From: a virus
Virus record (IMG/VR): IMGVR_UViG_3300047678_000278
Span: 1 to 50,145 of that record
Length of the DNA: 50,145 nucleotides
Reading direction: 5' to 3' (one strand)
Each line of letters begins with the position of its first letter. Positions within the stretch are counted from its first letter, which is position 1. The translations under genes were made by a program, and so were the position numbers. This document shows positions 10,808 to 47,612 of the stretch, piece after piece. The notes under the pieces are model-generated. The model worked only from the letters and a program-made list of their open reading frames with translations, searched no databases and had not been told where the DNA came from.

Positions 10808-12034
10808 TTAACCCTCCTTTTTTCCAAAGTCCGAGAACCTGGCCATCATGGCATCGAATGCAGCGGAGAGCTCAGGGCTGAGTTTAGACGGCGCTTTGGG
10901 CGTTGATTTCTTTGGGGCCTTTTTACGGCCATAGAGTATATCCAATTCTTTCGCCGCTTTTTCGCCGACGTGTTTGATTGTCTGTCCGCCGTCAAGACGG
11001 GCAGCGCGAGCATTGACTCTCTTCATCTCATCCAGCCTACGGTCGGTAAATGAGATTTTCTCAATATCAGTCGTGAGTTGATCGACTGCGACAGTGAGTC
11101 TTTGCCTTTCCAGCTTGCTAACCGAGCCCATTAGATCAGATTGAGTCAGTATCTGCTGGATATTCTGAAGCAATTGACCGGCGGTCGAAGCGGATGACAG
11201 TCGGTTCTGGAGCGTCATTGAGTAAACGCGCTCGATTAAGGTCGGCGGAGTTTTCGTGTCACCGTCCGCGATTTTCGGAATACGACGCCGCAAGACTTTC
11301 ATCGCGGCGGAAATAATCATTGCATTCCCGGAGGGAGTAGGAGAGGAAGCAGTCAATCGCCCCATGTTATCCGCTTCGAGGGAAGAGAATATTGCATGGA
11401 GTGCTAGGAAGTCAAAAGGATTTGACTTATTCTCTAGCCACGCCAGAAATTTCGGTCCGTGGCGCGTGCTATCGACTGCATTGTGGAAGGAGAAGATTGA
11501 GTCAATCCGCAGCATACACTCGAAGACAGCGGTTTCCTCGCACTCAATATCCCACCATTTTTCCGGGAGAGTGGAAAGGTGAGTTTGGAAACGAATTAGG
11601 AAATCCAGTCGTTGGCGAAGTGTGCTGAATGAGTTCTTATGCCGAGCGGGAGTTAGAGTGTCGTAGAAGAAACGACCCATGACATAGCCGAATAGCTTAT
11701 TCGTGCCGTTGAGTTCATCGGCCCGCAAAGCATTGACTAGGGTATGATAGTTGGTATGAAATCGAATTGACGGCGCTGGCCCGCTGGAAAGGATCGCGTG
11801 GCGGATAGCGAATGCATCAACCAATTCCTTCTGAGCCGCTGTCGGCATATCCTGCAAGAGAGATCGCAGACATGTATTCAATTCCTCATCTGACATAACT
11901 CCGTATGCGAAGCCAGTGAGTGAGCAGTAGATATGGTGCATCTTGGCGGCTTTGATCTCGACTATTGATTCAGCCAATACAGGCGGATCGAATACGAAGT
12001 CATTAAAGCCGGAGAGATCGAATGTTTGAGTCAT
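10808..12034 (-). CDS. Hypothetical protein (408 aa), coiled-coil and Lys-rich C-terminus
   Basis: Track ORF 10808..12118 trimmed to MTQTFDLSGF, which is preceded by GGAGCTACTCAC. It ends ...ELSAAFDAMMARFSDFGKKEG. Confidence 0.55.
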   Translation of the reverse strand: MTQTFDLSGFNDFVFDPPVLAESIVEIKAAKMHHIYCSLTGFAYGVMSDEELNTCLRSLLQDMPTAAQKELVDAFAIRHAILSSGPAPSIRFHTNYHTLVNALRADELNGTNKLFGYVMGRFFYDTLTPARHKNSFSTLRQRLDFLIRFQTHLSTLPEKWWDIECEETAVFECMLRIDSIFSFHNAVDSTRHGPKFLAWLENKSNPFDFLALHAIFSSLEADNMGRLTASSPTPSGNAMIISAAMKVLRRRIPKIADGDTKTPPTLIERVYSMTLQNRLSSASTAGQLLQNIQQILTQSDLMGSVSKLERQRLTVAVDQLTTDIEKISFTDRRLDEMKRVNARAARLDGGQTIKHVGEKAAKELDILYGRKKAPKKSTPKAPSKLSPELSAAFDAMMARFSDFGKKEG

Positions 12035-12066
12035 GTGAGTAGCTCCTAGATAGTTGAGTAAGTGGA

Positions 12067-12291
12067 TTAGGTGCGGTTGATTACGATCTCGACGTTCTGG
12101 CTGACTGCCCAACGGCATATGCGAATAAGTCGTTCGCGCCCTGAGTATTTATCGAGATCGATTTCAAATCGAAACGGCTTGTCATTGTGCTTGTATTCAA
12201 GAAAGCACCAGCCGTGTTGAGTCGGTGTTGCCACCGCTGTCTTTGTGATGAAAGAGGGAAGTTGAGCCATGATTGCACCAATTTGATTCAA
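12067..12291 (-). CDS. Hypothetical protein (74 aa)
   Basis: Track ORF with a 4-nt overlap with the upstream gene. Confidence 0.45.
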   Translation of the reverse strand: MNQIGAIMAQLPSFITKTAVATPTQHGWCFLEYKHNDKPFRFEIDLDKYSGRERLIRICRWAVSQNVEIVINRT

Positions 12292-12713: not shown

Positions 12714-13652
12714 TTATTCCGAGTCTGAACCGAAGGAACCGAGATCGAATCGATTAGCCACCTCGTCGAAGCGATCGAGTTGAGATAGCAGCATCGCTTT
12801 CTTGGTCCCGGGTTTGATTCCTCTCTTATCCAGCGCCTTCTCTTCCATGCGTAACTTCGCTTTACTAATCTCTTCGAGAAGGAGCTTTGAATCTTCGTCC
12901 ATCCTGCTCGGCGACCAGTCGTGGATGGAAGAACTGAATTGTTTCGCCCATTCCTTTACACTCAGTATGGAGTGAAACCGGAATAGAACACGGCGTAAGT
13001 GCCATTGAGGGCGAAAGAAGCGGGGCCAGGGGATTCCGTATTTCGCAAGCATTTCGACTGGGAGGCGAGGAGTACAGGTGAGTCCGGTGATGTGCTGATC
13101 GATTCCGAACTGCCAGCCGTCGTCGATATCTGCCCACATAGGAGGGAGAAGAGAGCGGTCGTGGTTGGAGACTTTATGAGTCAACCATTCAGAGATCGGG
13201 ATTTGGCCGTGTTCGAGCTCTTCGATGAGATTGCCGGTGGATGAGTCAGCGATATACACTGATCCCCAAGATATGTCTCCGAGGACGGATTTTTTGTGAG
13301 CGCCAGAGGAGCGGGAGAGAGAAATCGTTGTGTCTTCTCCGTGGCGAATCTTCGGAAGGAATGGGAGAACGAAGCCGCCATCGAGGAGATCGAAGGGGAT
13401 GAAGGATGGAGGGGAGGAGCGAGTGAGTCGACGATAATACCCACTCGCAGGGCCAATGGAGAACGCGCTCGACCATGCTAGGATTGTGCTGACTCGAGGG
13501 ACGGGGATATGCGAGTCAGCAAGGAATATCTCCCCTCGATCTTGGGAAGCATCGCCTAGGAGATTATGAGCGAGGCCGGCGGAATGAATCTCTGCACTCA
13601 GCGCGCAAACGGACGCGGTGAATTGCTCAGCTGTGATGGATTGAAGGAGCAT
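12714..13652 (-). CDS. Hypothetical early protein (312 aa)
   Basis: Track ORF, no recognisable motif. Third gene of the leftward early transcript. Confidence 0.55.
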   Translation of the reverse strand: MLLQSITAEQFTASVCALSAEIHSAGLAHNLLGDASQDRGEIFLADSHIPVPRVSTILAWSSAFSIGPASGYYRRLTRSSPPSFIPFDLLDGGFVLPFLPKIRHGEDTTISLSRSSGAHKKSVLGDISWGSVYIADSSTGNLIEELEHGQIPISEWLTHKVSNHDRSLLPPMWADIDDGWQFGIDQHITGLTCTPRLPVEMLAKYGIPWPRFFRPQWHLRRVLFRFHSILSVKEWAKQFSSSIHDWSPSRMDEDSKLLLEEISKAKLRMEEKALDKRGIKPGTKKAMLLSQLDRFDEVANRFDLGSFGSDSE

Positions 13653-13667
13653 GTGAGTGAAATGGAC

Positions 13668-14417
13668 TCAGGCGAGTGACGCTTGCGCAACAAGATAGTC
13701 GTCCTTTGACCAGGTTTTGATTTCAGCGCCGTATTGGCTGTTGAGTCGATAGAGGAACTTGAGATGCCCCTGAAGGAGTTTGATGATCCAATCGTTGATT
13801 GGTCTAGAGGGGTAGAAGGGAAGGAATCGTGGAGCCTTCGTCCCCTTGCCCCAGTCATTCATCACCGTCTGCACATCGAGGCAGTAGAGATAAATGATGA
13901 AGAATCGAGCCATCCCGCTCATATCAGACATGGCTTCAGCGGGAAATCCCTCGTCCATATTGTAGATAGAGCCATCGAGTGAGTATGCCCATTCATCGGT
14001 GATATGGATGGGGTTGAATGAGACATTCACGCCGTGTGGGAGAGCGATTGAGTAGTCTTTGAGGCATTCCTCGATTCGCTGACCCAAATCCGCCGGGAGA
14101 TACGGGATGAGGGCTTGGAGGTTGTTGAGAGCCGCTTGATTCGCACTGCCCTTGGTATTGGAATGGAAGTGTAGCGCGCTCATTGCTTTGCGTGGGATGG
14201 TGAGACGAGTGTTGACGGCTGTCTCCGCACGAATCATCGCCCCACAGAACGGGACTAGAAGGAGAGTGAGTTCGAGGAATGTCTCGAGCCCTTTCTTTTG
14301 TGTAGGAGTGAGTGAGACTCGGCGGTTGTAATCTGAATCATATGCGATCACCGCTCGCTCGCCTTGTGACATGAAGATATCACCGAATGACATGTCGGCA
14401 TATGGGTTTGATGACAT
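13668..14417 (-). CDS. Hypothetical early protein (249 aa)
   Basis: Track ORF, no recognisable motif. Confidence 0.55.
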   Translation of the reverse strand: MSSNPYADMSFGDIFMSQGERAVIAYDSDYNRRVSLTPTQKKGLETFLELTLLLVPFCGAMIRAETAVNTRLTIPRKAMSALHFHSNTKGSANQAALNNLQALIPYLPADLGQRIEECLKDYSIALPHGVNVSFNPIHITDEWAYSLDGSIYNMDEGFPAEAMSDMSGMARFFIIYLYCLDVQTVMNDWGKGTKAPRFLPFYPSRPINDWIIKLLQGHLKFLYRLNSQYGAEIKTWSKDDYLVAQASLA

Positions 14418-14421
14418 GGGA

Positions 14422-15357
14422 TTATACCTCGAAGAGATTCAAGAGAGGGGTGATTGTTGGGAAACGAAGTGGGATGGTAGCTCGTACGAATGCATCCCGT
14501 TCTCGCAGAGGCTCATGGAGTCGATAGATTCTCTCAGCCTGAGCGAAGATGACTCTTTTGATTCCTGCACTTCGAGCCTCTGCATCTGCAAGGGCGTTGC
14601 TGTACCGATTCTCGATCACCGATAAATCGTAGTCGCTGATATTCGCCCTATTCTGAAGGGAGTTCTTATCCTGCGTCGCACGGAAAAGCTGTGACTCAAG
14701 TTCAGGCAACCACATGTCTTCACAAGAAACAAAGTAGCGCAAAACGAGTTGTGACATCTGAATTATGTCATACTCTAGCTCCGGACGCAAAATTGGTTTT
14801 GACCTAAATTCATCGAGCAATTTGTCTAGAATCATAAGAGCAGCCGGCTTCGTATCGAATGGGTATTGCAGCCGCATCGTATATGATTTCCACAATGTAG
14901 GTGTGATTGGAGTATCAATGCCGAACTCAGTTGTGACTCGTGAGGCCAGATATGGGAGCGATGACGAGTTCGCAGCTAACAACCCACCAAGTGGAGAGAG
15001 GGTGTATGGGTCAGTGACTCCTAGAGCAGCCAGCCGCATCACAAAGTCATATGAGTTAAGACGCCATGAGTGATTCCGCTCATATTCTGCTTCTTCTTTG
15101 ATCTCGGCTTTGATTCGATCCTTGAGTGCGTGCCGGCTATCTTTCGTAGAGGGCCACCAAGGAAGTGACTCACGTTCATTCTGCGCCAATGCGAGCGTAT
15201 CTATGAAGAACTGCCGGTGATATTTCACCATTCCCTTCTCGAAAGAGAATGCTTCTGCCGGGAGTAGATGGAGTCGATTCTTTAAGATCGCTGCTGTGAG
15301 AGCGCCTTTGAAGTTAAAGGTTAATTCGGCAGTAGTGATATACTTTGGAATCGTCAT
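14422..15357 (-). CDS. Hypothetical early protein (311 aa)
   Basis: Track ORF 14422..15393 trimmed to MTIPKYITT, which is preceded by GAGGATACG. The track's TTG/ATG starts at 15393/15390 lie at or upstream of the predicted transcription start. Confidence 0.55.
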   Translation of the reverse strand: MTIPKYITTAELTFNFKGALTAAILKNRLHLLPAEAFSFEKGMVKYHRQFFIDTLALAQNERESLPWWPSTKDSRHALKDRIKAEIKEEAEYERNHSWRLNSYDFVMRLAALGVTDPYTLSPLGGLLAANSSSLPYLASRVTTEFGIDTPITPTLWKSYTMRLQYPFDTKPAALMILDKLLDEFRSKPILRPELEYDIIQMSQLVLRYFVSCEDMWLPELESQLFRATQDKNSLQNRANISDYDLSVIENRYSNALADAEARSAGIKRVIFAQAERIYRLHEPLRERDAFVRATIPLRFPTITPLLNLFEV

Positions 15358-15392
15358 CGTATCCTCGCTGGCGGAGCACAGAACGAGCATCA

Positions 15393-15421
15393 ATAGTAGA
15401 TGAATCGCGAAAGCATGTCAA
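15393..15421 (-). promoter_or_regulatory. Sigma70-like early promoter, leftward (P_L)
   Basis: Minus strand reads TTGACA (15421-15416), a 17-nt spacer, then TACTAT (15398-15393). Confidence 0.55.
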
Positions 15422-15459
15422 GCGAAATGTGGTGAGTCGGTATAGAATTACGTTGCGGC

Positions 15460-15499
15460 TTCTATTCTACACTGAATGAGAGGAACAGCATGAATAGAA
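15460..15499. promoter_or_regulatory. Inverted pair of the 8-bp box TTCTATTC / GAATAGAA upstream of P_L
   Basis: ttctattc (15460-15467) and gaatagaa (15492-15499) are exact reverse complements. The same box recurs at 16652-16661 and 16669-16678. Confidence 0.4.
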
Positions 15500-15568
15500 A
15501 AACCTGGAGTCTGGTTGCAGGAGGCCAAAGGATTAGCATGTAATATGTGATAGTGAGTCATAGTCCCA

Positions 15569-15585
15569 GCGCCGAAGGCCCTCAC
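15569..15585 (-). repeat. GT(G/A)AGGG + GCC-TTC-GGC motif, copy 1 (inverted orientation)
   Basis: The reverse complement reads gtgagggccttcggcgc. Its upstream flank gagacgtcgcttgtgaggg matches copy 3 (gatacgtcgctcgtaaggg). Confidence 0.7.
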
Positions 15586-15594
15586 AAGCGACGT

Positions 15595-15636
15595 CTCAAC
15601 ACCTCAACACCTCAACACCTCAACACCTCACAACAC
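15595..15636. repeat. Microsatellite (CTCAACAC), 4 perfect copies plus 1 variant
   Basis: Read directly from the sequence; the tract has no G. Confidence 0.95.
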
Positions 15637-15669
15637 TCATGCCCTATCGATTCGTTGCGCTCCCTAGGA

Positions 15670-15723
15670 CATGAGTGTGATGAATGTGATGAATGTGATG
15701 AATGTGATGAATGTGATGAATGC
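15670..15723. repeat. Microsatellite (GATGAATGT), 4 perfect copies plus 2 variants
   Basis: Read directly from the sequence; C occurs only at the first and last positions. Confidence 0.95.
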
Positions 15724-15737
15724 ATAGATTATAAGAA

Positions 15738-15765
15738 CGGTTAATGTAAGGGCGACTGGCGTCGC
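15738..15765 (+). repeat. GTAAGGG + hairpin motif, copy 2 (variant stem GCGAC-TGGC-GTCGC)
   Basis: cggttaatgtaagggcgactggcgtcgc. The upstream half resembles copies 6 and 7 (cggtaaacgtaaggg). Confidence 0.65.
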
Positions 15766-15768
15766 GCT

Positions 15769-15790
15769 ATCTGAATCATATCTGAATCAC
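15769..15790. repeat. 11-bp direct repeat TATCTGAATCA, 2 copies
   Basis: Read directly. Each copy contains TGAATCA, whose reverse complement TGATTCA occurs twice at 15863-15880. Confidence 0.9.
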
Positions 15791-15837
15791 AATTATATAA
15801 TGAGGGGGACTTATGTAATGAGGGAGATACGTCGCTC

Positions 15838-15855
15838 GTAAGGGCAACTTCGTTG
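15838..15855 (+). repeat. GTAAGGG + hairpin motif, copy 3 (stem CAAC-TTC-GTTG)
   Basis: gtaagggcaacttcgttg. The stem sequence differs from other copies but the pairing and the TTC loop are kept. Confidence 0.65.
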
Positions 15856-15859
15856 TGGT

Positions 15860-15880
15860 CATTGATTCAACATTGATTCA
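15860..15880. repeat. Direct repeat CATTGATTCA, 2 copies
   Basis: Read directly. Reverse complement of the TGAATCA pair about 90 bp upstream. Confidence 0.9.
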
Positions 15881-15887
15881 CATCTGC

Positions 15888-15912
15888 GGCGCCGAAGGCG
15901 GAGCGGCCGAAG
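15888..15912 (-). repeat. Core hairpin motif, copy 4 (inverted; CGCC-GAA-GGCG on the plus strand)
   Basis: ggcgccgaaggcggagcggccgaag. The reverse complement contains gccttcggcgcc and a second cttcggc. No GTAAGGG is attached. Confidence 0.5.
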
Positions 15913-15987
15913 AAAACCATCACACTCACTACTAGATTCGTGCTATGTGCGTATTGACTCTATTAATACACCTATCATTGATCTGTC

Positions 15988-16029
15988 ATTCGTTATTCGT
16001 TATTCGTTATTCGTTATTCGTTATTCGTT
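15988..16029. repeat. Microsatellite (ATTCGTT), 6 perfect copies
   Basis: Read directly from the sequence. Confidence 0.95.
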
Positions 16030-16063
16030 ACTCATTATTCACCATTCATTATCCATTATTTAT

Positions 16064-16095
16064 CCATCATCCATCATCCATCATCCATCATCCAT
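16064..16095. repeat. Microsatellite (CCATCAT), 4.5 copies
   Basis: Read directly; G-free. It runs straight into motif copy 5. Confidence 0.95.
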
Positions 16096-16110
16096 AAGGG
16101 CCTTCGGCGT
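16095..16110 (+). repeat. (A)TAAGGG + GCC-TTC-GGC motif, copy 5
   Basis: taagggccttcggcgt. Confidence 0.65.
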
Positions 16111-16176
16111 GCTTGATAGGTTTGCTTGATATGACTCATGTAACCATTGAGCAACAATTCGTATTATACTGTGTGC

Positions 16177-16204
16177 GATGGAGAATGGAGGATGGAGAAT
16201 GGAG
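16177..16204. repeat. Microsatellite ((G/A)ATGGAG), 4 copies
   Basis: gatggag aatggag gatggag aatggag; C-free. It presents four GGA motifs. Confidence 0.95.
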
Positions 16205-16205
16205 A

Positions 16206-16230
16206 CGGTAAACGTAAGGGCCTTCGGCGC
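16206..16230 (+). repeat. 25-mer CGGTAAACGTAAGGGCCTTCGGCGC, copy 6
   Basis: Identical to 16458-16482. Confidence 0.95.
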
Positions 16231-16233
16231 ATT

Positions 16234-16275
16234 GGTGTTGGTGTTGGTGTTGGTGTTGGTGTTGGTGTTGGTGTT
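16234..16275. repeat. Microsatellite (GGTGTT), 7 perfect copies
   Basis: Read directly; contains only G and T. Reverse complement AACACC is embedded in each unit of the CTCAACAC array. Confidence 0.95.
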
Positions 16276-16458
16276 GTTGTTCGTTGACTCGATATCATTC
16301 ATTGACTCGATGCTATCCATTAGCTTGACATTGCCTATTAGCTCAATGGCTCACTGGCTCACTGGCTCAATACTATTCAATGGCTCGATATTATTCATTG
16401 ACTTGACACTATTCACTGGCTCAATGTTATTCATTAGCTCAATATTGTTCATTGGCTC
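16276..16458. repeat. Degenerate 18-bp tandem array (about 9 units, consensus near TATTATTCATTGGCTCAA) with an inserted TGGCTCA(C/A) triplet; iteron-like
   Basis: My hand segmentation gives units ending in ...gactcga, ...gactcga, ...agcttga, ...agctcaa, three tggctca(c/a), then ...ggctcga, ...gacttga, ...ggctcaa, ...agctcaa, ...ggctcgg. Confidence 0.8.
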
Positions 16459-16482
16459 GGTAAACGTAAGGGCCTTCGGCGC
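16458..16482 (+). repeat. 25-mer CGGTAAACGTAAGGGCCTTCGGCGC, copy 7
   Basis: Identical to 16206-16230. Confidence 0.95.
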
Positions 16483-16615
16483 TTCCATTCCCACTCCCCC
16501 TTCACCCCTCCCAATAGTGAATCAATGATGCTGAATCAAGGGCTAAAGTGTGGGTGAGAATGGGATAAAACCGAGAGATATAACACTGATCCATGAGATG
16601 CTTACCTTTAAGAGG

Positions 16616-16680
16616 GGTATTATTTTTTCTATTATATTTATTCTTTCATAGAAGAATAGAAGAACATAAAGAATAGAAAT
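16616..16680. other. AT-rich block with an inverted repeat and GAATAGAA direct repeats (candidate DNA-unwinding element)
   Basis: tattctt (16639-16645) pairs with aagaata (16652-16658). aagaatagaa occurs at 16652-16661 and 16669-16678. This is the most AT-rich stretch I saw in the window. Confidence 0.35.
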
Positions 16681-16953
16681 CCTAAGACCCCCCTAGGAGA
16701 ACCTTTTCACACTCGCACTCATTATATCTCTCTTTTCCTGCCCCACAATTTGACTCATTCCCACCTCACCACGGTGATTCCCAGGGCACACCTACGGAAG
16801 GTGCTACCTACGCCACAACGGTTGACTCTCCGCCCCCCTCCGCCCCTCCTTCCCTCCTCAACCGCTAAAATTTGACTCAACCTCCCCTCACCCGCCCCCA
16901 ACCCATTGATTTTTCAGCAAAAAAAATATCTCGACTCGACCCCCTATCTCACC

Positions 16954-16982
16954 TTTACATCCGTCCCCCAAAAGCGTACACT
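16954..16982 (+). promoter_or_regulatory. Sigma70-like early promoter, rightward (P_R)
   Basis: TTTACA (16954-16959), a 17-nt spacer, then TACACT (16977-16982). It lies about 70 nt upstream of ATG 17054. Confidence 0.45.
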
Positions 16983-17013
16983 TTCCCCAGTCCGCTGCAT
17001 TCAGCACCGGACG

Positions 17014-17040
17014 AAACCAAACCAAACCAAACCAAACCAA
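17014..17040 (+). repeat. (AAACC), 5 copies, in the predicted 5' leader just before the SD of gene 17054
   Basis: gaaaccaaaccaaaccaaaccaaaccaaGGAActcaacaccATG. Confidence 0.9.
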
Positions 17041-17053
17041 GGAACTCAACACC

Positions 17054-17908
17054 ATGTCTACTCTCAACGTAATCACTGACGAAAAATCCATCGAGCGAGT
17101 TAAGAAGGCTGCAACCGGCGGAACCATGCGGAAAGTCTATTCCACTATGGAAGCGGCAATCGCCGCCATGCAGTCCCTCGCTCCTATCGCCGCCGAACTC
17201 AAAATCGCCATCAAGACGGCCGATCCAGAGACCTTTGCAGCCGAAGGAATGCAGCCGGTAATCGCCATCGTCGGCGCTCGCAAAGAAGAAACCGGCGCAG
17301 ACGGCAAGAAGCGCGGAGTCGTCGGCATTAAGGGGGTTGCATTCTTCCCAATCCCCACCCTCGACACATTCCTTTCCGACGAGCAGGGGCGTGACTGGCT
17401 CGTTAAGATCGCCGAGAAAGAAGCCGCACACGTTATCTTCCGTCCACTCCGCTCCGCTGAAAGCCTCGAAGAACTCGATACAGCAGCACTCCCGTCGAGT
17501 GTCGCCGCAATCGTCATGTCGAGCCGCGCCGACGCACTCGATACTGACTGGCTCGATGCAGTCTGGCCGATGGCTCGTGAGGGACTCAAGCTCAAAGCCC
17601 CAAAGCTTTACGAAGCTCTGCCGAAGCAGAAAGCGGAACTCGTGAAGTGCCTGCGCTCGAAGTCCTACGCCGAGGGCGCATACTCAGTCCTAGAGGGAGC
17701 CAACGCATTCACCGGCGCGCTGGCAGCATTCCTTATGAAGGCCGGAGAACTCAACAAGGCGGAAGACGGCACGTCCGACCCGATCGATACCAGCGAACTC
17801 ACTCGCTGGCTTGACGCTCGTGACGAGACCAATCTCGCCATTCCGAAGCCCGCTGACTACTCGGCAATCGCTGGGCAGGACTTTAGCAAGATCGATATCG
17901 GCTTCTAG
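17054..17908 (+). CDS. Hypothetical protein (284 aa), first rightward gene
   Basis: Track ORF with AAGGAA SD. Ala/Glu-rich, ends ...DFSKIDIGF. No motif recognised. Confidence 0.65.
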   Translation: MSTLNVITDEKSIERVKKAATGGTMRKVYSTMEAAIAAMQSLAPIAAELKIAIKTADPETFAAEGMQPVIAIVGARKEETGADGKKRGVVGIKGVAFFPIPTLDTFLSDEQGRDWLVKIAEKEAAHVIFRPLRSAESLEELDTAALPSSVAAIVMSSRADALDTDWLDAVWPMAREGLKLKAPKLYEALPKQKAELVKCLRSKSYAEGAYSVLEGANAFTGALAAFLMKAGELNKAEDGTSDPIDTSELTRWLDARDETNLAIPKPADYSAIAGQDFSKIDIGF

Positions 17909-18839: not shown

Positions 18840-19622
18840 ATGACAGATATGTTTGAGAAGGAGGGGGCGAAAAAAAATTTGCGAGGAGTCTTTGACGATA
18901 TTGATTTGAGTCAATGGGAGAATCCTGCCGTGGGAGCGGAGAAGGAGAAGGTGGAGGTGGAGGTGGAGAAGGTGATTGCGACTCCGTTGATTCCTGCTGC
19001 CCCGAAGGTGAAGCTGTCGGATATTGCGCGGTTGATTCTGAATGCTGATTCAAACGCGCCGGCTGGGAACGCGGAGGGGTTGAATGCCTCCCGTCAGGTT
19101 TTGGCTGATCGACTCGGCTGCACTGTGGCTGATATTAAGGAGGTCGCGGATAGCTACGGAGTCGATGCCTGGACCGCCCTTGTTTCGGAGGAGCGGGTGA
19201 AGCGGAGTCTTTCGATTGCGGCTGAACGCGATATCAGCTGGGATCGGCTCGAGAGTGTGGTGCTCAGGAAGTTGTTGAATCTGGTTGAGAACGATCGCGT
19301 GCAGACGGTGTCGGAGTTGGCCGCACTCAGCAAGCTGGCGAATCAAGCGACTCGTAGCCCGGATCGTAAAAGGGTTGGCGGTGGCGCGGACCAGCCGGGA
19401 GTTGGGTTGCAGGTGAATCAGCAATTCAACAATTATCTTCCTGGGAGCCCGGAGCACGGGGTTCTTCCTTCAGGGCATCTTGGCCGAATGACTCTTTCCC
19501 TCACCCACCGGATTCACAAGCAGATCGAAGGCGACGTGGTGAAGGGTGCGAGGGATTTGGATTCGCTGGAGATGCTGAGCCTGAAGGATATCCAGGAAGC
19601 AGAGAAGGCGTATGGGACGTGA
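18840..19622 (+). CDS. Putative small terminase subunit (assigned by position)
   Basis: Track ORF. It lies immediately upstream of TerL and overlaps it as GTGA. No diagnostic motif, so the call rests on position only. Confidence 0.4.
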   Translation: MTDMFEKEGAKKNLRGVFDDIDLSQWENPAVGAEKEKVEVEVEKVIATPLIPAAPKVKLSDIARLILNADSNAPAGNAEGLNASRQVLADRLGCTVADIKEVADSYGVDAWTALVSEERVKRSLSIAAERDISWDRLESVVLRKLLNLVENDRVQTVSELAALSKLANQATRSPDRKRVGGGADQPGVGLQVNQQFNNYLPGSPEHGVLPSGHLGRMTLSLTHRIHKQIEGDVVKGARDLDSLEMLSLKDIQEAEKAYGT

Positions 19623-21181
19623 GTCAGACCTCTCCATTCGTTAGGGTTGAGTTCGATCGTGCTGAGTTAAAGCAAGCGATTGCTCGTGACTGCATCACAG
19701 CTTTGACGTTTTATCTTGGGGAGGAGTTGACTCTCGAGGTCCCCGCATTCCATGAAGAGATATGGGGTGAGTTGGTGCGGTATCTTGATCGAGTCAGTGA
19801 GCCTGAGTTTCTTGTGGGGCATTTGCAGAAATTATTTGCGGTTCCGAGAGAGCATTCGAAATCAACTCTCGCGAAAGTCGCGGTTATCATATTCATGCGG
19901 TATTCCCCGCTTTCATTCACACTTTACATCTCCCGGACCTCTGGTATCGCTTTGAATGCTATCAAGGATGTTGTTGCATTCATGAAATCTGAGAATGAGG
20001 TTGAGTTGTATGGGCAGCCGACTGTCATTAAGGCGAATGAAACTGATTCCCTCTACATAGTCTCCATCTGGAGAGCGGATGGGACTCGAAAGACGGTGAT
20101 TCTGAAGGCAGTCGGTGCTCAGCATCAGGTTCGTGGACTCCTGATCGAAAACAAACGCCCCGATTTCGTGGTATTTGACGACGTGGAGGACTATGAGACA
20201 GCGGATGGGGGAGTCCAGCAAAAGAAACTCGACGAATGGGTGATGGGCACCGTCATGAAAGCTACGGCGAGGCGGAGTTTCCGACTCATGCTGGGCAATA
20301 TGGTCCGGAATACCACGCTTCTTGCGAGATTGAGTAAAGATGCAGACTGGAACCCGACTGTGTTTGGTGCGTTGGTCCGGGATAAAGTGACTGGGGCGCT
20401 TCAAGCCCTCTGGGAGGGCCGCTGGACCGTTGAATCCTTGATGGAGGACTATCGGAAGTATCGGAAGTTAGGCCTCGGTCATATCTGGGAGACGGAGATG
20501 ATGAATCTCTCCAAAGATGTGTTGTTCACAGCGGACCTGAGTGCTATGCCGATGCTTGAGTATGTCTCTCCGGATGACGTAGAAGCTGGGTTTCTGTGTC
20601 TCGACCCCGCATTCGGACAGAATGCGTGGAATGACGAGTCAGCCATCACTGTCCACGTCCGAGTGAAGGACTACCCCATCCCAGTTATTGTGGCTCACCG
20701 CGTAGGTCGATTCACCGAGAACCAGATCCTCGACAATATGGTCGAGTTGAGCTATTATTGGAATCTGACCTCCTGGGCCGTCGAGTCTCAGGCGGCGCAG
20801 CGGCTTCTGATCCCGTTGTTCCGCCTCCTTTTGTTGGATCGGAAGGTGAATCCCGACGTGTTCCTCATGCTGCCTGTCTTTACCGGGCAGAACACGAAAT
20901 CATCGCGCATTATCGCCTTCAGGACTTCTTGCGGTGCCGGTTCATACGCGATGACAGAGGATCAGGTGGATATTCGACTCAAACTCGAAGACTACTCCCC
21001 GGATACAAAGGATCATGACGATTTGTGCGACTCGGCTGCATTCGGTCCGATTGTTTGGAGTGCTTTCGGGGAATCGATTCAGTCTCAAGGGCGTGCTGAT
21101 ATCGCAGGTGCGTTGTTGCAACAAGATTCAAACTTATTCGGCAGAAGAACTGTAGGAGAGCTCGATGCATGTGCGCACTAA
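19619..21181 (+). CDS. terL: Terminase large subunit
   Basis: Track ORF with a GTG start. P-loop-like VPREHSKST, Walker B DFVVFDDVED and nuclease-domain CLDPAFGQ...DESAITV are present. Confidence 0.85.
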   Translation: MSQTSPFVRVEFDRAELKQAIARDCITALTFYLGEELTLEVPAFHEEIWGELVRYLDRVSEPEFLVGHLQKLFAVPREHSKSTLAKVAVIIFMRYSPLSFTLYISRTSGIALNAIKDVVAFMKSENEVELYGQPTVIKANETDSLYIVSIWRADGTRKTVILKAVGAQHQVRGLLIENKRPDFVVFDDVEDYETADGGVQQKKLDEWVMGTVMKATARRSFRLMLGNMVRNTTLLARLSKDADWNPTVFGALVRDKVTGALQALWEGRWTVESLMEDYRKYRKLGLGHIWETEMMNLSKDVLFTADLSAMPMLEYVSPDDVEAGFLCLDPAFGQNAWNDESAITVHVRVKDYPIPVIVAHRVGRFTENQILDNMVELSYYWNLTSWAVESQAAQRLLIPLFRLLLLDRKVNPDVFLMLPVFTGQNTKSSRIIAFRTSCGAGSYAMTEDQVDIRLKLEDYSPDTKDHDDLCDSAAFGPIVWSAFGESIQSQGRADIAGALLQQDSNLFGRRTVGELDACAH

Positions 21182-24596: not shown

Positions 24597-24703
24597 CATC
24601 ATTCCGCTTGAGTTTACCTGCCGGATGGGGTAGTCTACTCAGCATTCGGCAGGTAATTCTCCTAGCCGAGATTTCAAAACGGCACCGAACAGGAGATTCT
24701 CAG

Positions 24704-25906
24704 ATGGCTGTCCGTGGAATATTCGCCTCTCACTCGGGAATCGTCGGCGATCGCCAGACCGATCTCGCTGCCCGAGTCCTTCTCACCATGCCCGGCGGAA
24801 TGGCTCCGCTCTTGGCACTCTCGTCCGGAATGCAGTCGGCGCCGGCGCACGATACCGCGTTCAGCTGGATCGAGGATTCGTGGATTTCCGGCAACACCGC
24901 TTCGGCGGAGACAGTGAATGCGGCCGCGACGGACTTCGACGTTGTCGACGCGAACATCTGGACGCCGAATACGATCATCATGAACGAGGACTCCGGCGAA
25001 TACATGCTCATCACCGCGATCAGCGGCGTGAACGTGACCGTGATTCGCGGCATCGGCGGCACCACGGCGGCGGAAGTCACCAGCGGCGATACGCTTCAGT
25101 CGATCGGCACGGGATTCGCGGAAGGTTCCGGCAAACCCACTCCGGTGGCGCAGCGTGGCGAGACTCGCACGAACTACGTGCAGATCTTCAAGAATGGCTG
25201 GGCAATCACCGGGACGGCGACGGCGATCGACTTCACGACCGGCAGCCAGATGGCGATGAATCGCGAGCAGTGCCTCGCCTATCACGCTGAGGACATCGAG
25301 CGTGCGTTCCTCTGGGGCAAGAAGGATGTCCGAGTCATCGGCAACCAGCAGTTCCGGCTCTCAGACGGCATCCTGACCCAGATCGAACAGTTCGGCGGCC
25401 TCGTCGAATCGGCGGCATATCTCGGCCAGGCGGGTGAGATGTCGCTGTTCGGGATGCAGAACTTCATGCGGCGAATCTTCGACCGTCGTGTCAAGGGAAT
25501 GCCGAACGAGCGCATCGCGTTCTGCGGCTCGCTGTTCCTGGAGCGAATCCAGCAGATGGCGATGATGGACGCCACCTACAATATCGAGGCGAACGAATCC
25601 GAGTTCGGTATCCAGATCACGAAGCTAAAATTCTTCAACGGCCAGCTGAATCTCATCACCCATCCGATGATGGTCGAGAACGCGATCTGGAACCAGGAAC
25701 TCTATGTGCTGCACCCCGGCCTCATCAAGCGGCGCGTGTTGCGCGACTCCTGGTCGGAGGAGTTCTCTTCGAAAAAGCAGAACAACAACGGCACGGACTC
25801 GACCGAGGGCTACATCGCCATCGAGCAGGGCTTCGAGGTCAAGGGCGTCGAGACGATGGGCATTCTGCGGGATGTGACGACTCCGGTTCCGTCGATCCAG
25901 CCGTAA
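24704..25906 (+). CDS. Major capsid protein (HK97-fold type, by position and N-terminal pattern)
   Basis: Track ORF trimmed to MAVRGIFASHSG, which follows AGGAGA. It contains an F.WIED.W pattern. It has the highest GC I measured (about 62% on one line), follows the scaffold gene, and is followed by a strong hairpin. Confidence 0.65.
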   Translation: MAVRGIFASHSGIVGDRQTDLAARVLLTMPGGMAPLLALSSGMQSAPAHDTAFSWIEDSWISGNTASAETVNAAATDFDVVDANIWTPNTIIMNEDSGEYMLITAISGVNVTVIRGIGGTTAAEVTSGDTLQSIGTGFAEGSGKPTPVAQRGETRTNYVQIFKNGWAITGTATAIDFTTGSQMAMNREQCLAYHAEDIERAFLWGKKDVRVIGNQQFRLSDGILTQIEQFGGLVESAAYLGQAGEMSLFGMQNFMRRIFDRRVKGMPNERIAFCGSLFLERIQQMAMMDATYNIEANESEFGIQITKLKFFNGQLNLITHPMMVENAIWNQELYVLHPGLIKRRVLRDSWSEEFSSKKQNNNGTDSTEGYIAIEQGFEVKGVETMGILRDVTTPVPSIQP

Positions 25907-40268: not shown

Positions 40269-43200
40269 ATGCCGTCCTTCAGCTCGTATTCGACTCAGCC
40301 TGATTACCTCTCCAAGAAGTTGGGTGGTGGGCAGAGTCAGCTTGCACTATCCGCGGCGCAGCAGATGGGTTTGACTCGTCAGCTCTTCAACTCGCAGGTT
40401 CAGGATCGTGAGCAGCAGAATATGGGGTGGACTCCATGGATTCTCCGCACCGGTGCTGCCGCGACGCTTGATTTCGTGGATGTGCTGAACTCCTCCAGCC
40501 CGTGGGGCATTGCTTCCAGGGGGATTGAGAGCGCAATCGGAATCAACATTCCCCTGAACGCACGCGGGGATATGTGGGACCTCACGGAAGAGTATGGGAT
40601 GGAGGCCGGGCGTGATTTAGCCCAATTCTACCGCGCAAATTCTACGATGGTTGAGGCAGTCGGAGGAATTGGTGGCGCGATCGCTACCGCCGGAATCGCC
40701 TCCTCGCTCGTCCTCCCGAAAATCACGAACGCACTCGCTTCATCTTCGATGATCTCCGGTTCCAAGCTTTGGCAGGCAGGGGCAAGAGTCAATGCATCCG
40801 TCAGATCGAGACTCGCCACGGCGCAAGCAGAAGCTGCTCAAAACGGTCAAGCGTTTAAGTATCTCTCAGGTCCGGGACTCCAGTACATCGGACTCCGCGC
40901 CACTCAGGGCGTTGGTGTCGCGGCTTTTGAGGAGGCTGCGATCATCGCTGCTATGAATCAGAACTCCCTGATCGTTGGCGATGACATGGCGAACAACCTG
41001 TTCTGGGCTTCAATCGGTATCACGGCTGGCGGAGCGCTTGGCGGTGTGGCGTCGAGATTCGAGATGCGCCGGATGCTGAATGACCAGAACATCGTGGCGC
41101 AGAGAGCGGTGGCAATGGACCCACAGAATGTATTGCGGATGTGGGAAGAGAATCCCTCGTCGTTCAACACCGGGCAAAAAGCGGGGAGTGGCGGGAAGGA
41201 GTCGGCGGTATACACGGCTCTGAGAGTTGCGAGTCGACAGGAGACCCCGACTTCAGCGAGCCCTGAGTTGGGCGGGAGACTTGACGCGTTCAGGAACCAG
41301 AATCTGGCAGAGTCCCAGATGGTTCTTCAGAAACTGACGACGCGCGGAATCGAGGGGAATAAGAACACGGGGTTCAGCGTCAACATCACTGATAAGAAAT
41401 ACAACTACGGCCAGCATCTGATGGAAGCGAGTCAAGAGAATCCGACTCTGCTCTTGGGTGCGGACTCGATCGGGACGTTCAATCGGGTGGATTTGAATGA
41501 CATCAAGCCGGATGTGATTTTGCCGGCCGATACCGGGAATGTGCTTCTGGATGCGGCTCGCGCTACATTCAAACAGTCTGGGCAGCCGAATGCGCAGGCA
41601 ATTTCGGTGCAGAAATTCAAGGCATCGCACACTCCGCAAGAAGTCCGGACGTATCGGAAGGAGTTGCTTCGGTTGCAGAAGCAGAGCGGGGAATGGGCGA
41701 AGAGAATGACGGCTGCGAAGGACAGCGGTTCGCCTCTCCGAGTCACGATGGAGGCTCGGAAGATTCACATCGAGTCCCTGTATGCAGCTGGCGATCCGGC
41801 TCTGGCGAAGAGGGCAAGGGAGCTGGAGATTCAGCAGCCGTTGATGCTGGTGAATAAGGGCTGGCTGCCGGCCGATACTGCGGATGCGTTTGAGTTCGCG
41901 CAGTACAAGCGAGGTTCAGTCAAGGTTTCGCAGCCGACAACTGGAGTGCATGATTATGCGCTCGGCCTCACTTCGGGCAGCAAACGGCGAGTGAATGAAT
42001 CACTGGATGCTGGCAAAATTCATAACCTCTCCACGAGCACTTGGCTGGAAACGGTCGAGGGCATGGGTGAGGTGATGAAAAAGATGATGCGCGCGAAGCA
42101 AGCACTCGTTGTGCCGAAGACTGCTTCGTGGTCACAGCTGGATGCGTTCCGAGAGTATGAGAAGCGTGGCGGCGTGGTTGACTGGAAGACGCAAGCCGGT
42201 ATGCAGGGTGCGGAAGACGCGGAACTGGCATCGATTCAGGCTAAAGCCAAGATCGTTGGGACGCTGGGGAATACCGGTGCTGGGGGATACTGGAATCGAC
42301 TCAAGCTGAACCTTCCGCTTCCGAGTTCTCTCGAACGAATCTACGATCCCGCCGGCGACACGATGCGCGCGGTGTTGGAAGCGGCTACCAAGGGCGCGAC
42401 ACTCGCTGAACTGAAGCAGCTTCGAGTCAACATGATGAACCAGCACGGGTTCAGGCTGAAGGAATCGGTCCCGAATCTCGATGGCGACATGTTCAATTTC
42501 AATCTTTCGGAACAGACGAAGGAGTGGATGGACACTCCGGTTGCCTTCTTTGATACGGCGCCGACAAATCCCGTATTCCACCAGGGTGTGATTGCGGAGC
42601 AGATCGCTGAGTTGAAGGCACATCGGTTCATCGCTTTGACTGAGAATGCGCTCCCTGGTCAGATGCTTCCGACTTTCACGAAACAGATCGTGAGTTCGCC
42701 AAATTTCGTGGAGTCTTCGAATATCCGTGGACTCGCGGACGATCAAGTTACGGGGTTAGGGAATTGGGGTACACAGTTGGCGGGGGAACTGCTGACTCGT
42801 GAACACCGGTATCGCGACTCGAAAGTCATGCTCTCTGCCCTGAAGATAGCGGAAGAGAAGACGCGCGGAACCGATGCGTATCTGCAAACCCTCGTCAAGA
42901 ACGAGATGGCCGATGTGATTCCTCGGCTCAACGCTGCCCCTGCAGCTGGGAGCAAGGTGCTGTTGAATCAGTTCCTCTCCAACACATCTGGTTGGGATTT
43001 GAGAGCCAGCCCGGTGATGACTGGCGGAGGGAAGTGGGCGTTTGAATTGGCAGAAACGCTGGCCAATGAGACGCGGTTGGGAAGGAAGGTAGTGCCGGGG
43101 GAGATACTGAAGAATCCTCGCACCGGAAATGAGATCGTGCTGGATGATCTTGGACTTGAGTTCATGACTCGGTTCAATTCAGCCAGTGAGTATATCCGAG

Positions 43201-45712: not shown

Positions 45713-47110
45713 TCACCCTCCCTGACGAATCTTGATAAGCCGGTCGATATACTGACCGGCTTTTTCTACGCCCATTGACTCGGCAATCTTGAGTCGTCCG
45801 CCTTCTCCGCGGATTTTATTCATGCGAGTGAGGACATCGAATATGTGGATGACTTCCTGCTCGGTCCATCCGGCTTTCATCAGGTGAGAAGTCATCCGCA
45901 GATGATCGCCTTCTTCGGGGCCGAGGGATTCTAGAATCTCTCGCATCAACACATACGCGCGAGCTTCGATGGTTTTATTCATCCCCATGTATGCGGCGTC
46001 CATGTCGATCTCAGTGAGGATGAGAATCACATGTGCCAGCCCAAGGTCTTCACGGGAGACTTGGTATGGGGATTCACCGCGGAGCAGACAGATGATTGCA
46101 GCAACGCGGACTAGATGGATTGCTCGGCGACCGGCGTAGGCATTGAGTCGGAACTCTCCGGTAATCACGCTATAGTTGTAGAGGTGAGTGTATTCTTTCG
46201 CGGCTTCGGGAGTGAATGTGATCTCTCCCTCTGCCTCAATCACTGCCTGCTCTAATCTCTCACTAAGAATTGCCTCGACTTCGATCTCTTGTTCAGTTCT
46301 TGAAGGAGGTAGTGGCACAGACCGCTCATTCTTTGCTCCGTAGACGAAGATGAGTCGCGAAAGGAACCCATGATCATGAGCGTCTCGAGGAAGTATGTTG
46401 CTGAGTGAGCCTGGCGTGGTCGCACCCAGCAAGTTAATGAGCGGAGCTGAGAGTCGAACGTTGCCATTCTTGGTCTGGTAGAATATAGCTTCACCGTCAA
46501 GTCCATCAGCAAAGAAGTCAAGAAGTTCACGAGTCGGCGAGGTGAGGAGCCTTCCCAGCTCCTTGCTCGCAAAGTAGATAGAAGAAGGGCGCGTTCGGTT
46601 TCGTCGCACTCGAGCAACAGTGGATGTGAATTCCGATAGTGCAAAATCTCGTAGATTGAGAGGCTGTTTGGTTTGGCCTGGGGAGTCATCTTTAATATCC
46701 TCTTGTAAACGGTTTTGCATTGCGTGCATGATTCCATGCCGCGCTCCACCTGTATCGGTGGGTCCGTAATTCAAGCTGAGATTGGAAGCGAATCGTTGTG
46801 AGAACGAGATCGCGGAGGATTTACGGAGGGCCGGCCGACCAATCAGCACCACCCCGAGATTGAGCTTGATTCGCCCAGCCACACCATGGTTGAACCATAC
46901 GGTGTTTGACGTTAGGGCAGAAGTCAGTGACAGCAGCGACCATAAGTGGTACTGCCGCGGATTCTCGGTGTTCCTCGAAAGGAAGAGGTACTTGCGGATG
47001 GAGTCGAAGCTCTGCCCGAAAGCTAAGTCGACGTCATTGCCATGCCATAAGTCCTGCCAGCCGAAGCTGGTGCCAGATCGATCCTTCGGGGGGATTGTTG
47101 AGTCGTTCAT
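45713..47110 (-). CDS. DUF3987-like P-loop ATPase (putative replicative helicase or primase-associated protein)
   Basis: Track ORF 45713..47113 (GTG then ATG). YHLWSLLSLTSALTS...LNLGVVLIGRPALRKSSAI resembles the DUF3987 pattern with a Walker-A-like G.P...KS. Confidence 0.45.
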   Translation of the reverse strand: MNDSTIPPKDRSGTSFGWQDLWHGNDVDLAFGQSFDSIRKYLFLSRNTENPRQYHLWSLLSLTSALTSNTVWFNHGVAGRIKLNLGVVLIGRPALRKSSAISFSQRFASNLSLNYGPTDTGGARHGIMHAMQNRLQEDIKDDSPGQTKQPLNLRDFALSEFTSTVARVRRNRTRPSSIYFASKELGRLLTSPTRELLDFFADGLDGEAIFYQTKNGNVRLSAPLINLLGATTPGSLSNILPRDAHDHGFLSRLIFVYGAKNERSVPLPPSRTEQEIEVEAILSERLEQAVIEAEGEITFTPEAAKEYTHLYNYSVITGEFRLNAYAGRRAIHLVRVAAIICLLRGESPYQVSREDLGLAHVILILTEIDMDAAYMGMNKTIEARAYVLMREILESLGPEEGDHLRMTSHLMKAGWTEQEVIHIFDVLTRMNKIRGEGGRLKIAESMGVEKAGQYIDRLIKIRQGG

Positions 47111-47612
47111 CACACATTGCCAATGCAGTCAAGGAGTCTGGAGCGGAGAAGCCGTTCATCGGAAACACACGCCGACGGTAGTTGTCAGCATAGAGTCCGT
47201 AAAGCGGAATCGCATCCGGAGCCACGACGATGGTGATGATTTGGTGGAATACGGGGGCGGCAGAATAAAGATAGAGTTGTTCGATGGGATCCGCGATAGA
47301 ATCGTTGAGCACCAGTTGCACATTGGATGGAATGGTGCGAGCCATTCGTTTGATCCAGTAGCCAGGATCGACTCGCTGGCGCATCTCTGCCCATTCGATC
47401 AGCTTGGCTCGGCCGGTCTGGCCATCGAGGAAACGCTTCTCGCGGAAGGATTCATAGTCATCCACCCACCCATACTCGCGCTTCACTTCCGTCCAGATTT
47501 CATCACGAGCCGATCGAATGATCGTGAGTTCTGGCTTGAATACATCTTTTAATCGGCGAGCGAGCCATGTCTTGCCGGCTCTAACTTCGCCGTTAATGGC
47601 GATCATAAACAT
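47034..47612 (-). CDS. dNMP-kinase-like P-loop protein
   Basis: Track ORF with GGAGGG SD. IAINGEVRAGKTWLARRL and RAKLIEWAEMRQRVDPGYWIKRM resemble phage deoxynucleotide monophosphate kinases. Confidence 0.45.
   Translation of the reverse strand: MFMIAINGEVRAGKTWLARRLKDVFKPELTIIRSARDEIWTEVKREYGWVDDYESFREKRFLDGQTGRAKLIEWAEMRQRVDPGYWIKRMARTIPSNVQLVLNDSIADPIEQLYLYSAAPVFHQIITIVVAPDAIPLYGLYADNYRRRVFPMNGFSAPDSLTALAMCDERLNNPPEGSIWHQLRLAGLMAWQ

Follow-up and report, generated by a model that had tools for sequence, protein, structure and literature searches.

A clustered heptamer and mini-hairpin motif in the non-coding region of an uncultured podophage genome: a possible initiation or loading signal on single-stranded DNA

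DNA mini-hairpins of the GCGNAGC type are reported to be unusually stable; the mini-hairpin CCGAAGG is contained in the RSF1010 signal ssiA, which is read by the RepB' primase, and G4-type origins carry GCGAAAGC (PMC13037366). Hairpins are also found in the promoters of phage N4, in which stems of 5-7 base pairs (bp) with a 3-nucleotide (nt) loop and a central purine lie upstream (centre at -11) of the +1 position on the template strand (PMC4496689), while the Syn5 promoter, ATTGGGCACCCGTAA|G, ends in ...CCCGTAA and initiates with G (PMC3950665). Here we describe a motif made of a conserved heptamer, RTRAGGG, and an adjoining mini-hairpin, which recurs in seven copies at positions 15568-16482 of a viral sequence, IMG/VR record IMGVR_UViG_3300047678_000278, analysed over its whole length of 50,145 bases (the window). 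The motif is real and statistically supported, and it is probably structured. We tentatively read it as a hairpin-plus-tail signal for initiation or loading on single-stranded DNA (ssDNA) in an origin or control region, a possible reading rather than a probable one.

Six of the copies consist of RTRAGGG and a hairpin in fixed register, and the seventh is a hairpin alone. Only RTRAGGGC is common to the six full copies, all of which (6/6) have a purine as the first base of the heptamer; upstream, each has a flank of one of two unrelated kinds or no flank, and the sequence on the side of the hairpin away from the heptamer is not conserved between copies. Written on the minus strand, the unit is 5'-[compact hairpin, GNA or GNNA loop, closed by C-G]-CCCTTAC-3'. 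Within the circular 50-kb genome, composite copies occur only in a 1.7-kb stretch of non-coding DNA (15358-17053); early and replication genes run leftward from its left side, and packaging and structural genes run rightward from its right side. The sequence GCCTTCGGC occurs five times, always within 15571-16480, against 0.52 occurrences expected, and four of the five exact matches to GTAAGGGC in the 50 kb lie inside the non-coding region (binomial P = 6e-6). When both strands were scanned for RTRAGGG followed by a hairpin in the same register, 6 of 9 heptamer sites inside the region (15585 to 16466) had one, versus 0 of 14 outside it. Under a first-order Markov null, stems of at least 3, 4 and 5 bp in register have probabilities of 0.10, 0.027 and 0.007, and the joint chance of the three stem types found (GCC/GGC, CAAC/GTTG and GCGAC/GTCGC) is 1.9e-5.

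The leftmost copy (copy 1, 15568-15594, minus strand, ACGTCGCTTGTGAGGGCCTTCGGCGCT) is inverted: on the minus strand it reads ACGTCGCTT-GTGAGGG-CC-TTC-GG-CGCT, and on the plus strand its hairpin is GCC-GAA-GGC (15571-15579). Copy 2 (15738-15767, plus strand, CGGTTAATGTAAGGGCGACTGGCGTCGCGC) has CGGTTAAT-GTAAGGG, a GCGAC stem, the loop TGGC (GCCA on the minus strand), the GTCGC stem and then GC, with a G5-C closing pair beyond a GxG mismatch. In copy 3 (15829-15855, plus strand, ACGTCGCTCGTAAGGGCAACTTCGTTG), ACGTCGCTC-GTAAGGG is followed by CAAC, a TTC loop and GTTG, and the 5' flank matches that of copy 1. Copy 4 (15889-15900, minus strand, CGCCGAAGGCG) is a hairpin core without GTAAGGG, CGCC-GAA-GGCG on the plus strand, and has in common with copy 1 the upstream context TGAnTCA-N8-GCGCCGAAGGC. 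Copy 5 (16094-16110, plus strand, ATAAGGGCCTTCGGCGT) reads ATAAGGG-CC-TTC-GG-CGT and adjoins an (ATCCATC)n array. Copies 6 (16206-16230, CGGTAAACGTAAGGGCCTTCGGCGC) and 7 (16458-16482), both on the plus strand, are identical 25-mers with unrelated flanks on either side, the former lying between (ATGGAGA)4 and (TTGGTG)8 arrays and the latter at the right edge of an array of 18-bp repeats. Copy spacing is irregular, from 50 to 350 bp, and five copies share one orientation, although both strands carry copies. The outermost two, copy 1 on the left and copy 7 on the right, form the arms (15568-15585 and 16466-16483) of an 18-nt inverted repeat in which the GTAAGGG senses point outward, towards the two operons. 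A first-pass annotation of this DNA had listed seven copies in both orientations, including two identical 25-mers at 16206 and 16458 and an inverted copy at 15569 with a flank matching that of copy 3. We found all of these, with small corrections: copy 5 starts at 16094 and not at 16095, and the element at 15889-15900 is a hairpin core alone.

Five copies have 3-bp stems, one has a 4-bp stem (as has the core copy) and one a 5-bp stem; read on the minus strand, the loop is GAA in six of the seven and GCCA in the other, with a closing C-G pair in 7/7. In copies 1, 2, 6 and 7 the stem is followed by a single GxG mismatch and then by a closing G-C pair (G5-C), which explains why 'GC' is conserved after the hairpin. 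Copies 2 and 3 are clearly related (GTAAGGGCGACT versus GTAAGGGCAACT), and between GCGAC/GTCGC in the one and GCAAC/GTTG(T) in the other there is one clean compensatory change, from G:C to A:T. The GCC/GGC stem, common to four or five copies, is probably shared by common descent. The three stem types occur with 5' flanks of two kinds (CGGTWAAY and ACGTCGCTY) in different combinations, which, together with the unrelated surroundings of the two 25-mers, indicates that the unit is a discrete module and not part of a larger duplication. The first-pass annotation was therefore right to propose a structural element rather than simple duplication, to hold that pairing is kept while the stems differ and to assign the opposite-strand loops to the mini-hairpin type. 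A MAFFT alignment of the three stem lengths was inconsistent, and a covariance model would amount to a search for GCC-type sequence.

Three features of the motif point towards a signal on ssDNA. Pairing is kept while the stem sequence changes, which favours a folded single strand over a protein site on duplex DNA; the GNA or GNNA loops closed by C-G all lie on one strand of the unit, which argues for DNA rather than RNA and, in five copies, for the minus strand; and the complement of the tail, RTRAGGG, begins with a purine, as expected of an initiating nucleotide. The context resembles an origin, with about nine iteron-like repeats of 18 bp (16284-16458; cores T[TC][GA][GA]CTC[AG]AT, consensus TCATTGGCTCAATATTAT) that, together with (TTGGTG)8, are bracketed by the identical copies 6 and 7. 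An AT-rich trough nearby (16580-16700, 27.5% G+C), which holds a 35-nt imperfect inverted repeat, is a candidate unwinding element, and a second AT-rich trough spans 15940-16100. The phage also encodes a family A DNA polymerase (PolA), a RecD-like helicase and a protein of the primase/helicase family. The last of these (45713-47113, minus strand) is a DUF3987 protein that matches phrog_14296, annotated 'DNA primase' (E = 2.6e-31), and has 170 unassigned N-terminal residues; by this family match we consider it a putative primase. The first-pass annotation had recognised neither an RNA polymerase nor a primase, and only the former statement still stands.

From the motif, its clustering, its pairing, its loops and its genomic context we infer a single-stranded state, a reading enzyme and an initiation event, which could be connected as follows. 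The region would become single-stranded either through unwinding from the iteron-like array and AT-rich stretch or through passage of a replication fork. The mini-hairpin would resist coating by single-strand binding protein and position the adjoining heptamer, on which the enzyme, most likely the phage primase/helicase-family protein or the host primase, would start a strand with the sequence 5'-RTRAGGG..., purine first and running into the hairpin. Given the outward orientation of the two end copies, strands would be synthesised away from the region on either side. Every copy has a tandem array directly beside it, on one side or on both, and these flanking microsatellites may be by-products of polymerase stalling and slippage beside stable hairpins in DNA that is free to vary.

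Several observations weigh against such an ssDNA signal. The stems, of 3-5 bp, are much shorter than the hairpins of about 20 nt in known ssi signals, and there are seven copies here, five of them in one orientation, whereas RSF1010 has one signal per strand, ssiA and ssiB. Only three stem types are independent, and the hairpin alone is not special, since 63 C-GNA-G hairpins with 3-bp stems occur genome-wide on both strands. With 3-bp stems in five copies, nearest-neighbour folding energies are weak, from -1 to -7 kcal/mol, in a model which omits the extra stability of GCGNAGC-type mini-hairpins. The region has no DnaA boxes, and the GC skew, which is negative immediately right of the cluster, does not clearly indicate an origin. 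DUF3987 corresponds to the ATPase part of the putative primase, the homologue of which in the cultured relative PaMx41 is annotated as ORC-like. Finally, in relatives of the window phage and in PaMx41, Kuura, Tiera and Aeromonas phage P5, RTRA(A)GGG with a hairpin is no more frequent than background and lies in coding DNA.

Among the alternatives, an iteron or operator bound in double-stranded form by a phage protein (a replication initiator, a pac-recognition protein or small terminase, or a regulator of early/late transcription) would fit the position of seven copies between divergent operons and directly upstream of packaging genes. The contacted half would then be GTAAGGGC and the palindrome either incidental or a means of binding a dimer. 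The conserved core GCGCCGAAGGC does reach beyond the stem, the region contains other repeats that look like protein sites (TGANTCA and the 18-bp array), the relative L023 has a different motif at about 50-bp spacing in the same place, and related podophages have terminal repeats just upstream of their terminase genes, of 606 bp in Kuura (PMC9959647). We nevertheless consider such a site doubtful: if it were base-specific and bound by a dimer it should not allow three unrelated stems with the dyad kept, the intervals of 50 to 350 bp are irregular, and no DNA-binding fold was found in the flanking genes (the 284-amino-acid (aa) family on the right has no PDB match and the left-flank gene no homologues). 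It is unlikely that the copies have no dedicated function and are remnants of local duplication or gene conversion in a slippage-prone, unconstrained spacer, with hairpins that arose by chance or mutation. Such an origin is in keeping with young tandem arrays (93-100% identity) throughout the region, with one stem being common to four or five copies, with the frequency of small hairpins in general, with the lack of the composite motif in the relatives examined and with the lack of homologues for open reading frames (ORFs) through the region; it does not account for two 25-mers that stay identical between unrelated flanks, for pairing in fixed register in three stem types (1.9e-5), for a loop type that is consistent on one strand or for the shared architecture of mismatch plus closing pair. 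The combination of a hairpin with a conserved 7-nt tail containing TTAC resembles oriT, HUH sites and the GTAG-plus-hairpin units of REP/RAYT, and could thus mark the cut or nick site of a strand-specific nuclease, that is, an HUH initiator, a relaxase-like enzyme or the terminase at the boundaries of terminal repeats. The position just upstream of the packaging genes would agree with this, and Kuura, a more distant phage found by capsid and terminase searches, has fixed ends there. However, scans of the larger ORFs and most of the smaller ones revealed no HUH, relaxase or Y1 transposase domain, the assembly is circular with no end signal, and an independent contig breaks in tandem arrays and not at the motif, which makes a nuclease site very improbable.

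The remaining alternatives concern transcription. The first-pass annotation had likened the motif to N4 promoters and the GGG to the +1 start of single-subunit RNA polymerase promoters, and a start site for a phage-specific RNA polymerase, either T7/Syn5-type or an N4 variant, would have transcripts begin at the GGG of RTRA|GGG with a stabilising 5' stem-loop. The Syn5 echo, of eight bases, is real: CGTAAGGG, with ...GTAA followed by GGG, recalls the 3' end of ATTGGGCACCCGTAA|G (PMC3950665), and a stem-loop could form at the 5' end of the putative transcript. Since the stem begins at G7 and G5 is paired, RNA starting from G5 would have a fully paired 5' end, and the outermost copies face the flanking operons. 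Mini-hairpins with GAA loops are known from N4 promoters (PMC13037366, PMC4496689), with which the motif has in common a 3-nt purine loop with a sheared G:A pair and C-G closure, stems that vary while pairing is kept and a position in non-coding DNA ahead of early genes (PMC4496689). The N4 analogy nevertheless fails, because N4 stems have 5-7 bp while five copies here have 3, because the N4 hairpin is upstream of +1 while here the conserved heptamer is on the 3' side of the hairpin strand, placing the hairpin downstream of the putative start, and because we found no virion RNA polymerase. Likewise, the stretch that all copies have in common is only 7-8 nt, too short to make a promoter for a single-subunit polymerase when compared with 15-23 in T7/Syn5 promoters. 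Both operons, moreover, already have sigma-70-like promoters, TTGACA-17-TACTAT on the minus strand (15393-15421), facing the leftward early operon, and TTTACA-17-TACACT on the plus strand (16954-16982), facing the rightward operon; the latter is kept in the relative L021, which has 73% identity in the adjacent 284-aa protein. Pfam and PHROGs searches of the scanned ORFs detected neither a T7-like, N4-like or two-barrel RNA polymerase nor any PF00940-like match; a six-frame DxDGD scan had no match in a real ORF, the 1762-aa and 835-aa virion proteins and the other large or early ORFs checked, nine in all, lack T7-like motif B (Rx3Kx6-7YG) and HDS, a search of PDB sequences for a polymerase was negative, and the syntenic cultured relatives PaMx41 and 119X have no annotated RNA polymerase. 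We thus judge a polymerase start site decidedly unlikely. An unrecognised polymerase, RNA polymerase or primase, might still be encoded by early genes without known homologues (14422-15357, 13668-14417, 12714-13652 and 10808-12118) and read the 3-5 bp mini-hairpin with CCCTTAC on ssDNA, the arrays being its products or templates, for example decoy repeat RNAs or DNAs, instead of passive slippage debris, but we give this proposal a low probability. Searches of the early ORFs against Pfam, PHROGs, NCBIfam and PDB sequences gave no match, an AlphaFold model of the 284-aa family (pLDDT 80) had no fold match in PDB, and a single-sequence model of a 436-aa early protein (pLDDT 39.6) was unusable. 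It is similarly improbable that the motif acts as RNA in leftward transcripts, with a hairpin followed by CCCUUAC serving either antitermination, as a nut-like (boxB-boxA) site, or the processing or stability of early-operon RNA. Five copies do have this order on the early-gene strand, a minus-strand promoter, ATTACA-16-TATAAT (15819-15792), would transcribe copy 2 about 20 nt downstream, and a perfect TATAAT at 16168-16163, seen by eye and not flagged by the promoter scan, precedes copy 5; GCCCUUA is one base off the boxA core, GCUCUUA. Against an RNA element, GAA triloops and a GCCA loop are not privileged in RNA, copies 3, 6 and 7 have no recognisable promoter upstream, the region has no Rfam match, and we know of no precedent for five tandem nut-like sites.

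In order to find the motif elsewhere, we searched host and virus sequences for its exact core. The 17-mer GTAAGGGCCTTCGGCGC gave 94 single hits in 185,579 species genomes (GTDB, one genome per species), against about 70 expected by chance; all of them were inside conserved protein-coding genes, and no genome has a repeat family. Two hits were listed for one genome only, that of Pseudarthrobacter sp. H2, and as their flanks are identical they appear to be one site fetched twice. An abundant REP-like element of the host chromosome, the outcome which the first-pass annotation had named as fatal to its proposal, is thus rejected for the exact core, the host itself not being identified. Scans of 2.9 million IMG/VR contigs with 15- and 16-mer cores gave single hits at chance level only, which indicates that neither this phage nor a motif-bearing relative is among those contigs. 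A CRISPR array or solitary repeat was also rejected, as neither GTDB nor IMG/VR has a locus with multiple regularly spaced matches and the spacing in the window varies from 50 to 350 bp.

A blastn search of the region against 50,697 phage records gave no match, nor were homologues of the left-flank gene found in the protein database. The adjacent 284-aa protein led to one close relative, the L021 contig (SRR17191901), which ends 139 nt upstream of the gene and does not include the motif region; in the other relatives found in this way (30-45% identity) the non-coding DNA is different. Long non-coding DNA rich in repeats is found at this place also in relatives that share the gene order. Weak echoes of the motif were seen in two of them: the equivalent region of L022 has two exact copies of CGTAAAGGGG in opposite orientations, and in that of L023 (2729-3057) a different motif, GAGYGCATCGCATAAAGC, occurs at least four times, and up to seven by eye, at a spacing of about 50 bp, with GCCGAAGGC in one of the copies. 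The strings ATAGGGA and TATAGGGG or similar recur in the non-coding DNA of L022, L023, 119X and PaMx41.

The two ends of the window are identical over 127 bp (1-127 = 50019-50145), which indicates a circularly closed assembly of about 50,018 bp and a complete phage genome. The large terminase (19619-21181), an SU10-type major capsid protein (24608-25906), the endolysin and the tail genes are on the plus strand, and the RecD-like helicase, a PD-(D/E)XK nuclease, a Sak4-like protein, the DUF3987 protein and PolA form a block on the minus strand. Capsid and terminase are about 27% identical to those of the nearest cultured phages, PaMx41 and 119X (Fredfastierviridae), Tiera and EBPR podovirus 3, and the gene order is common to the window phage and PaMx41; most of the remaining proteins belong to no recognisable family. 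A virion protein of 1762 aa (40269-45557, plus strand), the last in the structural block, matches PHROG 16165, for which no function is assigned; it is syntenic with the 1849-aa gp24 of PaMx41, contains no polymerase motifs and is likely an ejection or internal protein. An independent assembly at k = 31, Logan contig ERR9963791_52637, is 100% identical to the window over one compared end (L020) and lacks 15706-16251. Its breaks, at 15705 and 16252, fall inside the ATGAATGTG and TTGGTG arrays, both of them longer than k = 31, so that the central part of the array region is known from one assembly alone. GC skew is positive on the plus strand over the minus-strand and plus-strand gene blocks alike, except at 16-19 kb, and being independent of transcription direction it hints at largely unidirectional replication.

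The short tandem arrays among the copies (15595-16281) comprise CTCAACAC x4.5, ATGAATGTG x5.8, TATCTGAATCA x2, CATTGATTCAA x2, ATTCGTT x7.6, ATCCATC x4.9, ATGGAGA x4 and TTGGTG x8.3. To their right, the plus strand is strongly C-rich at 16483-17053, with a GC skew reaching -0.69, CCCC runs and, immediately ahead of the start codon at 17054, (AAACC)5.4; a comparable C-rich leader precedes the small terminase gene of PaMx41. The palindrome TGANTCA, probably the operator of some regulator, occurs 49 times in the genome against 19.3 ± 4.4 expected, with 36 occurrences in the first 20 kb and 10, at 15554-16879, in the 1.7-kb non-coding region. A further motif of the TTGACTCA / GACTCAAAC type is found upstream of the rightward promoter at 16751, 16815, 16873 and 16937, with a spacing of about 60 bp. 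In distant relatives it also lies 25-40 nt upstream of the start codons of homologues of the 284-aa gene (positions ~40 in L021, ~249 in L024, ~287 in L026, ~388 in L028, ~1025 in L029 and 9590-9960 in L022), and it is therefore conserved family-wide, in contrast to the GTAAGGG motif. Between copies 2 and 3, TAATGAGGGGGA and TAATGAGGGAGA lie 18 nt apart (15792-15826) and overlap the strong minus-strand sigma-70-like promoter ATTACA-16-TATAAT.

A coding explanation of the motif was rejected, since the 47-aa and 116-aa ORFs that run through it have no homologues. In the latter (16178-16528, plus strand) both 25-mers are in frame as VNVRAFGA, and it is the period-6 and period-18 arrays that keep the frame open. 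This ORF lacks a ribosome-binding site, had no homologue in a set of 1.84 billion representative proteins, and is probably non-coding. Rfam gave only two sub-threshold snoRNA chance matches in 15000-17400. A search for intrinsic terminators flagged none of the motif hairpins, which have no T runs; one weak match overlaps the tail of copy 6.

To our knowledge, nothing has been described about origins or regulatory DNA in this podophage lineage, and the motif marks where origin or packaging signals could be sought in this uncultured phage group. If the ssDNA initiation or loading signal is confirmed, it would be a minimal start signal of hairpin plus heptamer in a lineage of double-stranded DNA podophages distantly related to Fredfastierviridae, with a 3-bp mini-hairpin doing the work of the much longer hairpins of RSF1010, G4 or N4. 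It would also provide a concrete mechanism tying stable mini-hairpins to the local birth of microsatellites. The motif provides a defined oligonucleotide substrate for the primase/helicase-family protein and for the early proteins.

Among known systems, the arrays themselves find a counterpart in the end regions of PaMx41-like phages, where non-coding DNA also has runs of short repeats; the ends of the PaMx41 record show TATAGGGG and AAGGTAG repeats. In T7, the terminal repeats are adjoined by short-repeat arrays (SRL/SRR) beside the packaging/early region. Neither the SRL/SRR arrays nor those of PaMx41 are punctuated by a hairpin motif, as the arrays of the window are. REP/BIME elements and CRISPR-like solitary repeats share with the motif a short conserved tag beside a small palindrome, many copies and the use of both orientations, but here the exact 17-mer gives only single coding hits, spacing is not regular and no host copies were seen. 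RSF1010 ssiA and ssiB and the G4-type origins have in common with the motif the mini-hairpin cap, with a CCGAAGG heptanucleotide that is the same as the one described for ssiA, as well as a conserved tail 3' of the hairpin, presumed to be single-stranded here, neighbouring iterons (iteron-like repeats here) and AT-rich DNA, and copies on both strands. They differ in having no sequence similarity to it beyond this heptanucleotide, and the putative primase of the window phage is known by its family match only. Thus, the motif belongs to none of the families tested, and by analogy its architecture most resembles that of hairpin-plus-tail signals on ssDNA.

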